Origin: Candidatus Xenobia bacterium
GTDB lineage: Bacteria; Vulcanimicrobiota; Xenobia; Xenobiales; QWHO01
Length of the DNA stretch: 38,844 nucleotides
NCBI GenBank assembly: GCA_045863235.1
Contig: BTUM01000076.1
Location: 1 to 38,844 of the forward strand
Direction of reading: 5' to 3'
The notes under the pieces were generated by a model. It was given only the letters and a program-made list of their open reading frames with translations, had not been told where the DNA came from and searched no databases. The translations under genes were made by a program, and so were the position numbers. Shown piece by piece: positions 37,236 through 38,844 of the stretch (positions are counted from its first letter, which is position 1; every line of letters starts with the position of its first letter).

Positions 37236-37319
37236 TCGGGCGGGGGTAGGGCGGCGCCCGCGAGCGTTCACTCTCGTATCGTCGGGTCAAAGCCCACCTT
37301 AACAGCCGCTGGCAGGATC

Positions 37320-37571
37320 TCATCGGATCGTGTATCTGGCGCTCATGTCGGACGAATTGATGTTGCTCAGATCGAAGGACTGGATTCCGACGTCCTGAAC
37401 GCTTCTCAACTCGCCACCCTGGGTGACTCCATCACCGTTGGCGTCAGCCCAGACCGACAGTCCGTGAAGCTCGTCGCCGGCCACCTGGCCGTCATTGTTC
37501 TTGTCGAAGTTTTGCCTGAGCTTTTCGTAGCCGTTGGCGTACCTCATCAAGTTGTTGCCCTGCACGTCCAT
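37320..37571 (-). pseudogene. Fragment of a Ca-binding (EF-hand-like) secreted protein
   Basis: FDKNNDGQV and LSVWADANGDGVTQGGEL motifs; in-frame stop six codons upstream of the Met, so probably 5'-truncated. Confidence 0.55.
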
Positions 37572-37690
37572 CGTGGGCCAGCCCGACTACCGACTACTCG
37601 ACGACTCGCCGATGGTCGAGGCGATCATCCAGACCGGCGAAGGCTTGGCGGCCGACCTGTGGGACCTGGACGGCCTGGATGCAGCCGGCC

Positions 37691-37940
37691 GATCTGAAAG
37701 AAGCGGTCTACCTCGGCCTTCCCCCAGGTGCCGATCTCGACCGACCGAGGCACCACCACGGTCCTCCATGCGCTGGAAGTGTCGGTCCAGATGAGCCCAG
37801 CAGGTCTGTAGCCTTTCGACCGGGTGAAACGAGTAGGTTGTGGCGCGGTCGGCCCCGAGTATCCCCTCGAAACAGTCGCCGAGTAGCCTTCGGGCGCTGT
37901 CGTGGTCCTTGCGAGAAGAGATCATGAAGATGGCCAGCCG
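37691..37940 (-). mobile_element. IS66-family transposase fragment, frameshifted
   Basis: SR...ARRLLGDCFEGILGADR..Y...QTCWAHLDRHF; continues as EIGTWGKAEVDRFFQI if one 4-nt unit at 37741-37748 is removed. Confidence 0.8.
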
Positions 37941-38016
37941 GCAGTACAGCACTTTTTCATTTTCGCGAAGAAGTTGGCGTCTTCCCTTGCGTTGGCTCGG
38001 TGGATTACCGGCCTCG

Positions 38017-38045
38017 TTGCCAGGATGAGGCTGATCTGCTATCCT
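38017..38045 (+). promoter_or_regulatory. sigma70-type promoter TTGCCA-N17-TATCCT with extended -10 TG
   Basis: -35 at 38017-38022, 17-nt spacer, -10 at 38040-38045. Confidence 0.7.
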
Positions 38046-38169
38046 AAAAAAGTGCTCGGTCCCGCTGTAACGAGACCGAGCAGGGGTTCAACCGGCTACC
38101 AGGCGGGCTGCGTGTCAGCAGCAACACCAGGAGCAGGACGAGAAGGATGAACAAGGTCCAAGCTCTCAT
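38044..38169 (-). CDS. Small hydrophobic peptide, Ibs-like type I toxin candidate, probably frameshifted
   Basis: AAGGAGG (38177-38183) 7 nt before the ATG; MRAWTLFILLVLLLVLLLT...; removing one duplicated AC gives ...TQPAW* with TAG at 38096-38098. Confidence 0.65.
   Translation of the reverse strand: MRAWTLFILLVLLLVLLLTRSPPGSRLNPCSVSLQRDRALF
38046..38082 (-). terminator. Intrinsic terminator downstream of the small peptide gene
   Basis: Minus-strand stem tgctcggtctcg/cgggaccgagca followed by CTTTTTT. Confidence 0.75.
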
Positions 38170-38218
38170 CGTAGCCCCTCCTTTCCGAGCCTGCGTTGCT
38201 GCGCAGGCTCTTCGTTTT
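38052..38218 (+). ncRNA. Putative cis-antisense RNA (Sib-like type I antitoxin), about 165 nt
   Basis: Bounded by the 38017-38045 promoter and the 38187-38218 terminator; complementary to the peptide ORF and its RBS. Confidence 0.55.
38187..38218 (+). terminator. Intrinsic terminator of the putative antisense RNA
   Basis: Perfect 9-bp stem gagcctgcg/cgcaggctc with 6-nt loop, then TTCGTTTT. Confidence 0.7.
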
Positions 38219-38357
38219 GGAAGGGGTCCACTCTGAACGGGCTCAGTGTTCCTTGCCCACCTGTCCCCGTGAGGGAGATTCAATGTGCATTGAAACTTCT
38301 CCTCATGAGCCCGAACCTTGTATTCTGAGCATCAGCACCAGTGGCGGCCCACGTCGC

Positions 38358-38703
38358 CGGCCGCGGGGATGGTAGCGACGCACCAGGCCGAGCAGCTCGC
38401 CAGGCCGAACCCGCGTGTAGATCTCCGTGGTCGCTGAGCATAATGCCCGAGCAGGCGGCTGGTGGCCACCACGTCCTGCGTGCGCTCGACGAGCTGAGTG
38501 GCGAAGAAGTGCCGGTTGCCGCATCGAGTGAGGCGTGGCCGAGCCCGCTTTCTGGCGCAACTCCTGCATAATCTGCTGGACCAGCCGGATGCTGATGCGG
38601 CGGTGCTGGCGGACCACCAGGAGCGGCGCTTCGGAGGGGTGGAGAAGCCGCGTTTGGCGAGGAAGTTCGCGAGGTGACGAAACGGCTTCAGGGCAACGGG
38701 CAC
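38358..38703 (-). pseudogene. XerC/D-like tyrosine recombinase, C-terminal remnant with several frameshifts
   Basis: Stitched frames: VP..LANFLAKR / APLLV..RISIRLVQ..ATPHSMR / HFFATQLVERTQDVVATSRLLGH / ATTEIYTRV...YHPR (HxxR, LGH and catalytic Tyr). Confidence 0.85.
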
Positions 38704-38844
38704 GCCACTGCCTCGGAGACGAGGCCCTGTCTCCGGACGGGCTAAAAAGAGTGAGCTTTCGGCAAGCGCGCTTGGAACGGGTGGAGGCGGGTGAAAATTC
38801 CGGTCAAGAACTGGACATGGATCCGGGGTCAATCCGGTTTAAAA

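Follow-up and report, generated by a model that had tools for sequence, protein, structure and literature searches.

A putative type I toxin-antitoxin cassette of Ibs/Sib architecture and its apparent spread on mobile elements of Vulcanimicrobiota

A short locus near one end of the DNA analysed here (the window, meaning the whole stretch of 38,844 nt) is best read as a type I toxin-antitoxin cassette with the architecture of Ibs/Sib, a reading that its sequence and predicted RNA folds make about 80% probable. At least 17 copies of the cassette occur in 9 of 44 genomes of the same class, and the best explanation of their distribution appears to be a family that mobile elements have spread through one order of Vulcanimicrobiota. 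A preliminary description of this DNA had proposed an Ibs/Sib-like type I module far from Enterobacteria that standard annotation would miss. The distance is borne out by a comparison of ribosomal proteins, by which the host reads as Vulcanimicrobiota, and the oversight by the lack of any Pfam, NCBIfam or Rfam match. As for the module itself, its architecture has stood up, being conserved across two families, whereas its membership of the known family has failed at the Pfam and Rfam cut-offs.

The preliminary description had placed a promoter, two hairpins, a ribosome binding site (RBS) and a hydrophobic frame in this part of the window, and promoter and terminator scans together with translation find all of them where it had put them (Table 1). 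The plus-strand promoter, TTGCCA-17-TATCCT, is the sole promoter-like site between 37400 and 38844 (one, against a mean of 0.1 in shuffled sequence), and the two hairpins of the cassette are the strongest of four terminator-like sites in the same interval (shuffle mean 1.1). The hairpin that would end the plus-strand RNA is as first described, its U-tract only in part so, reading TTCGTTTT and being imperfect. The predicted antisense RNA of 167 nt is close to the 165 nt originally estimated and covers the whole ORF and the RBS. For the mRNA, no promoter above the scan threshold was found at the cassette. The ORF, which starts at the minus-strand ATG at 38169, contains the most hydrophobic 13-residue stretch among 2,806 short SD-led ORFs of the genome.

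Table 1. Features of the cassette and its flanks in the window
Feature	Position	Strand	Basis
IS66 transposase fragment	37587..37952	-	NF033517, E 3e-10
Antisense (antitoxin) promoter, sigma-70-type, extended -10 TG	38017..38045	+	promoter scan; conserved position and score
Predicted antisense RNA, about 167 nt, complementary to whole ORF and RBS	38052..38218	+	ends inferred
Peptide ORF as assembled, 41 aa; stop 38046-38044	38044..38169	-	translation
mRNA 3' hairpin and U6 tract, terminator-like	38046..38082 (hairpin 38082-38053)	-	terminator scan, folds
Second, 3' anti-SD element; may pair with RBS region	38082..38088	-	predicted folds, inference
Two extra bases shifting the frame, this assembly only	38112..38113 (about)	.	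alignment with homologues and contigs
RBS GGAAAGGAGGGG	38175..38186	-	core invariant in alignments
Antisense terminator hairpin and imperfect U-tract	38187..38218 (hairpin 38187-38210)	+	terminator scan, folds
5' anti-SD GTGGACCCCTTCC, predicted to pair with RBS in mRNA leader	38219..38231	-	predicted leader folds
Weak candidate mRNA promoter CTCACG-17-AACACT, speculative	38245..38273	-	by eye, below scan threshold
Xer-type tyrosine-recombinase remnant	38303..38617	-	TIGR02224, E 0.002

The folds of the two RNAs have z scores against shuffles of -3.5 for the antisense RNA and -5.0 for the mRNA, and much of their structure is shared between the strands. The inverted repeat of the antisense terminator doubles as the inner hairpin of the mRNA leader, and the reverse strand of the mRNA 3' hairpin forms the 5' hairpin of the antisense RNA. 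In the predicted antisense fold the anti-SD segment CCUUUC is single-stranded just 5' of the terminator, as in SibC, and the complement of the 3' anti-SD element closes a P1-like stem by comparison with SibC and SibD. An unstranded RNA library (X16) yields a contig of a related allele over 38063-38407, whose strand is unreadable and which may derive from DNA; a second RNA run (X15) gives no coverage of the cassette. Neither run is counted as evidence, the end of the X16 contig at 38063 coming from a single study.

As assembled, the peptide frame of the window reads MRAWTLFILLVLLLVLLLT and then RSPPGSR..., departing from the expected sequence after residue 19 and running through the 3' hairpin, with extra bases at about 38112 that are absent from every homologue compared. 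The 23-aa Leu-rich peptide originally proposed survives here as its first 19 residues at the head of a longer frame, and its TQPAW-stop tail is present in the sequence but thrown out of frame by the extra bases; the stop codon of the intact version would be equivalent to 38098-38096. The preliminary description had suggested searching related genomes for intact copies with the same flanks, and such copies exist: a metagenome copy (L076), 96% identical over 37939-38454, encodes exactly the proposed 23 aa, MRAWTLFILLVLLLVLLLTQPAW. In all three runs whose contigs span the site, the entire contig depth is without the two bases (27 of 27 in X1, 25.4 of 25.4 in X6 and 4.8 of 4.8 in X16), and all these contigs have C at 38087, where the window has T. 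Run X1 also holds exact matches to the window flanks 37300-37971 and 38292-38615. The two bases are either a strain-specific break or an assembly error, alternatives that contig data cannot separate because contigs drop rare variants. A real break is plausible given that the host element has decayed on both sides of the cassette. The new stop of the shifted frame shares its position with the last bases of the U-tract, so that a transcript terminated there might carry no stop codon. IbsC, which depolarises the membrane, is described as needing at least 10 hydrophobic residues plus its C-terminal residues (PMC8309996), so that the loss of the native C-terminus in the window suggests a loss of activity; a frameshifted IbsC has been reported as still toxic (PMC7192591). 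Judged by its sequence, and barring an assembly error at the two bases, the window copy is most likely disarmed; its antisense promoter and terminator are intact. Its probable inactivity lowers its standing as a single locus.

The family was gathered by DNA, peptide-profile and RNA-model searches. Eleven copies are intact, five broken and one cut by a contig edge, and the total is a lower bound because inspection covered 25 of 52 matches to one RNA model (R2), the other 27 having E 0.01-0.05. Six copies lie in genome G025, two each in G001, G003 and G019, and one each in G007, G009, G011, G027 and the genome of the window itself (G000), where no second copy was found, though contig ends may hide collapsed repeats. 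All belong to two families (f1 and f2) of one order; no cassette turned up among the inspected matches in 19 genomes of a third family (f3), nor outside the class. Peptide profiles run against 401 genomes of the phylum gave none outside the order, as judged by E-value and frame length, weak matches (E above 0.003) being assessed without reading each. Model R2, run on 150 genomes of the phylum, gave two matches outside the class, both at N-termini of long ORFs. The five breaks differ: a frameshift in the window, a deleted start in G003:C185, a frameshift in G025:C342, an internal stop in G009 and a lost stop in G011. At the other extreme, G025:C396 carries a tandem array of five units, about 270 bp apiece, and every unit has an antisense promoter.

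The most independent test of the family comes from a leader-only RNA model (R1), because nothing of the coding sequence past the start codon enters it. It returned nine new weak matches; in three of these a frame for a hydrophobic peptide and then a 3' hairpin come after the leader, and two of the three have a fair antisense promoter. The cassette peptides resemble signal peptides, and among 14 weaker matches to R2, 11 are not cassettes. A pattern search of metagenomes gave 15 matches, of which five are such cassettes (two identical to genome copies) and eight are due to chance. Proteins of the window and ribosomal proteins fall into 90% clusters with 'bacterium CPR1', and of the 120 best L4 homologues the seven that bear an organism name are labelled Vulcanimicrobiota or Eremiobacteraeota (three), Ca. 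Bruticola (two), UBP9 (one) and Armatimonadetes (one), which we read as Vulcanimicrobiota, class Xenobia. One record that carries the cassette (L016) is labelled Burkholderiales bacterium, contrary to a Vulcanimicrobiota host. Searches of Pfam, NCBIfam, Rfam and PDB sequences with the peptide or the RNA gave nothing meaningful, and tblastn and blastn against phages and plasmids gave no match. A pattern search of viral contigs produced nine matches, none confirmed, and a pattern for the tail alone produced five viral matches, all by chance.

The copies have several parts in common: a covarying helix that hides the RBS, the terminator of the antisense RNA, a short ORF for a hydrophobic peptide and a hairpin at the 3' end. 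Most also have an antisense promoter. When 11 leaders were folded alone, the SD was predicted in all 11 to pair with an upstream anti-SD, enclosing the antisense-terminator hairpin. At six positions of this helix the pair type differs between copies, with two or three types at each; these changes amount to about three lineage-level events rather than eleven, since the copies are kin. In an unedited MAFFT alignment the inner hairpin is partly out of register, 75.8% of positions are paired and two pairs are changed on both sides; on this last measure 442 of 500 shuffles score as high, and only some measures beat shuffles. Of 14 copies tested, 13 have an antisense promoter that scores 9-10 of 12 and lies 35-52 nt beyond the stop codon, a placement and score matched by at most 1.5% of shuffles. 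Six copies found later score 10, 9, 9, 8, 7 and 7. The weak promoters are those of the second G001 copy (score 6) and of the G011 and G007 copies (7), and the 3' U-tract is poor in the first G001 and the second G003 copy.

Intact peptides range from 19 to 25 aa, varying in frame, and have 23 aa in the window's lineage. In the L076 peptide 18 of 23 residues are hydrophobic, and seven of nine aligned intact copies end in an aromatic residue. Replacements among five intact 23-aa ORFs are confined to codons 3, 5, 6, 7 and 19; synonymous changes are as many as replacements, with no excess.

The following picture of transcription, repression, toxicity and target is what we infer from sequence, conservation and predicted folds. 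A minus-strand mRNA would encode a single-helix hydrophobic peptide of 19-25 aa; while nascent, it would hide its RBS in a helix with the 5' anti-SD, and at full length it could additionally use the 3' anti-SD. A stronger, convergent promoter would make an antisense RNA of 140-170 nt with an exposed anti-SD segment, which would pair over the RBS and ORF, block initiation and probably feed RNase III. Sib RNA is described as acting in this way, seeding on the RBS and ORF loop, blocking initiation and triggering RNase III (PMC4147584). Were the antisense RNA to fall, the peptide would enter the inner membrane and depolarise it or block a membrane complex, which would stall growth and favour keeping the element. 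Salmonella IbsA is reported to bind the a and b subunits of ATP synthase (bioRxiv 10.1101/2025.05.26.656083), making that enzyme, by analogy, a possible candidate target of the cassette peptide.

The same layout could instead control a small membrane protein that is no toxin, for example a transporter regulator or an accessory peptide of a phage or other element. This is the best of the alternatives, but a rather unlikely one. In its favour, the peptide matches no family library, and in the phage relatives described below an RHH-like gene comes next on the same strand, so that the locus may do more than maintain itself. A double lock, with both SD sequestration and a full-length antisense RNA, nevertheless fits a costly product, as do the tandem duplication, the scattered mobile contexts and the broken genes in 5 of 17 copies, and of the families scored, Ibs_toxin comes nearest to the phage relatives. 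Considerably less probable still is a noncoding RNA as the functional product, whether a trans-acting sRNA or the terminator of a recombinase operon, with the peptide frame incidental. Its appeal lies in a promoter-terminator unit that stays intact where the peptide gene is broken (the window, the second G003 copy, G009 and G025:C342, the last with the promoter GTGACT-17-TATAAT) and in the three loci (the window, L064 and L076) where the cassette directly follows an XerC/D-like gene. Against it, a strong SD is kept at fixed spacing, ORF length varies in frame, hydrophobic residues are retained while the DNA diverges, and the cassette also occurs without an Xer gene (G001, G025 and L069). Least credible of all is debris of a signal peptide or secreted-protein gene with ordinary terminator hairpins, an idea invited by the signal-peptide anatomy of the peptide and of several weaker RNA-model matches and best Ibs-profile decoys, and by the transposase and recombinase remnants around the window copy, but largely refuted by the conserved antisense promoter (the non-cassette R2 matches have none, with scores of 4-7) and the tandem array, and opposed by a PAW-type tail and stop conserved across genera, by the absence of that tail combined with a hydrophobic core from all 179,692 stop-ended frames of the genome, and by the lack of a mature-protein remnant past the stop in any copy read.

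The surroundings of the putative toxin-antitoxin cassette are those of mobile DNA. The preliminary description had set the locus between IS66 and Xer remnants, and both fragments have been identified (NF033517 and TIGR02224). From 37938 down, the IS66 fragment takes the place of the relatives' downstream gene, and over 38303-38454 the recombinase remnant corresponds to the 3' end of an XerC/D-like gene, the one that stands ahead of the cassette in L064 and L076. Elsewhere the cassette adjoins a Tn3 transposase (L069) or lies within a small integrase element with DUF4258 and DUF2283 genes (G001:C169), and some cassettes stand after Uma2 genes. An integron reading was dropped, as the recombinase scores best as XerC/D-type; it is of the tandem kind seen in L096 (G002:C375) and L098 (G003:C313), where two or three XerC/D-like genes stand in a row, in L098 after an ORF that by eye resembles a primase-helicase tail.

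Several further features of these neighbourhoods were recorded. The recombinase remnant at 38454-38844 looks chimeric, in that the L076 match ends at 38454 and the part further on matches G000:C141, and 38750-38844 matches six other contig ends, the contig stopping in a repeat. A conserved segment of 55-60 bp (window 37939-38000; also L010, L064 and L076) lies 3' of the cassette, before differing cargo genes; a second copy in the genome of the window (L097, G000:C20:746-803) stands without a cassette, before a fragment that by eye resembles an Rhs core, and the segment is possibly an element end or a shared leader. Downstream of a G003 cassette (L010), a transglutaminase-like gene is flanked by a 20-bp direct repeat at about 432-452 and 1693-1712, as if inserted as a unit. 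In L014 (G003:C185) a HicB/RHH-like gene is inserted at 1279-1680, upstream of the broken cassette, and is absent from the matching G001 locus (L011). Beyond the IS66 fragment, an 83-aa ORF with EF-hand-like repeats (window 37320-37571), 76% like a stretch of G000:C8, is probably a gene fragment. Finally, a long-hairpin leader with the same GGAAAGGAGGG RBS precedes a non-hydrophobic ORF in L149 (G012:C4), which could be an unrelated antisense-controlled gene.

Ibs has been listed from one phylum and three families (PMC5367252) and described from Enterobacteriaceae, Pasteurellaceae and apparently H. pylori (PMC2887945), and type I systems in general are on record for three phyla (Proteobacteria, Firmicutes and Tenericutes) plus a single cyanobacterial case from 2025 (PMC12390103). 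Whether so narrow a range is real or reflects search bias is put as an open question in PMC12390103 and PMC5367252. The literature searched contains no prior type I report for Vulcanimicrobiota; subscription journals and the supplementary tables of T1TAdb and Fozo lie outside it and may bear on the range of Ibs. The occurrence of the complete Ibs/Sib layout in a phylum that is distant and mostly uncultured speaks for search bias, and a family invisible to Pfam, NCBIfam and Rfam yet found by an RNA-leader model offers a search recipe. A bolder reading, tentatively held and at somewhat less than even odds, would make Ibs/Sib a single branch within an ancient superfamily that crosses phyla, its members being signal-peptide-like type I toxins that have their antisense architecture in common and a tail of the form S/T-x-P-A-aromatic, present in Vulcanimicrobiota and many phages and carried on tyrosine-recombinase, Tn3 and phage elements; the Vulcanimicrobiota branch would have gained the 5' anti-SD as a second, co-transcriptional lock. 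If true, this would contradict published accounts, in which each type I family is confined to a single phylum and rarely mobile. The natural series of intact alleles, five broken copies and an array with variable hairpin loops lets cognate specificity be probed, and suits asking whether these peptides, as has been reported of Salmonella IbsA (bioRxiv 10.1101/2025.05.26.656083), act on the F-type ATP synthase.

Among known or newly found systems, a set of phage peptides stands between the cassette and Ibs. A pattern of SD plus tail gave eight viral matches, six of them phage peptides ending SFPAW or SSPAW and two due to chance, and a second pattern gave 38 matches with 13 distinct phage peptides. 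PF13956 (Ibs_toxin) is the only Pfam match for five of six phage peptides tested, the best score being 25.7 bits where the cut-off is 27, a link to Ibs that is partly circular because the patterns demand the tail. Like the cassette, these IMG/VR loci run hairpin, SD, ORF, hairpin, with tails SFPAW, SSPAW, SYPAY and TQPAW, and 12 of 13 representatives have an antisense promoter scoring 9 or more. Unlike it, they are AT-rich, their antisense promoter lies about 60-70 nt past the stop, and a small ORF follows on the same strand (RHH-like in L017). The hosts of the phage contigs may be Neisseriaceae-like. IMG/VR and metagenome records together hold a large unannotated Ibs-like set (L017, L054-L060, L067, L075, L101-L138), all tested members falling below the Pfam cut-off.

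AapA of Helicobacter pylori is a cationic peptide of about 30 aa, and in AapA/IsoA the SD is sequestered by more than one anti-SD. There, as predicted here, the antisense RNA lies within the mRNA and over the ORF (PMC8594479), but IsoA does not span the whole of it. SymE/SymR is a type I module whose mobile island has primase-helicase and Rhs genes close by (PMC1891008). The setting of the window cassette is comparable, since it follows an XerC/D-like gene in what looks like a similar element; neither Pfam nor NCBIfam confirmed that the gene downstream of it in L076 is of Rhs type. SymE differs from the short hydrophobic peptide here in being a non-hydrophobic protein of 113 aa (PMC4147584).

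The closest parallel remains Ibs/Sib, and the cassette quite probably works in the same way as far as sequence and folds can tell of its architecture, while falling short of the curated cut-offs for the family. PF13956 matched none of the intact peptides and no cassette in four genomes. Rfam gave no match at gathering score in the window, and none of 12 matches at E up to 10 in six loci is to a Sib or QUAD family (RF00113). Peptide similarity to Ibs is suggestive of a weak, remote relationship, bridged by the phage peptides: hhalign gives 86.9%, or 54% with a wider alignment, a measure limited by low-complexity sequence. The same low complexity limits the decoy tests, in which the intact peptide, scored against an E. 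coli-only profile, is matched by 2 of 1,475 membrane decoys (the best decoys against the Ibs profile being signal-peptide-like N-termini); the reverse test, which is weaker, gives 4-81 of 1,475. The cassette peptides differ in their greater length (19-25 aa, against 18-19 aa in Ibs), longer core and mostly QPAW or RPAW tail, the strong 5' anti-SD helix around the terminator hairpin is absent from E. coli leader folds, and the host phylum and frequent carriage on mobile elements are also distinct. The order of parts, which runs from the terminator hairpin of the antisense RNA through the SD and a short ORF rich in Leu/Ile to the 3' hairpin and the antisense promoter, matches all five E. coli K-12 loci (ibsA-E/sibA-E), as the preliminary description had it, and the sib promoters lie 42-46 nt past the stop, compared with the 35-52 nt of the Vulcanimicrobiota cassettes. 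The predicted antisense RNA has its own promoter and terminator and spans the entire ORF and RBS, and an antisense spanning the whole ORF is specific to Ibs/Sib according to T1TAdb (PMC8594479). The folds of SibC and SibD each combine a closing stem, an anti-SD left single-stranded and the terminator, as in the published arrangement of P1, J1/7 (TRD2) and P7 (PMC2943612), and the predicted folds of the antisense RNAs of the window, L076 and G025 have the same three elements. Ibs peptides end in a small residue, any residue, P, A and an aromatic, as the cassette peptides mostly do, the AQPAY of the G007 peptide coming close to the SFPAY of IbsB, and the tandem copies of the G025:C396 array repeat what has been described as a hallmark of ibs/sib loci (PMC2887945).
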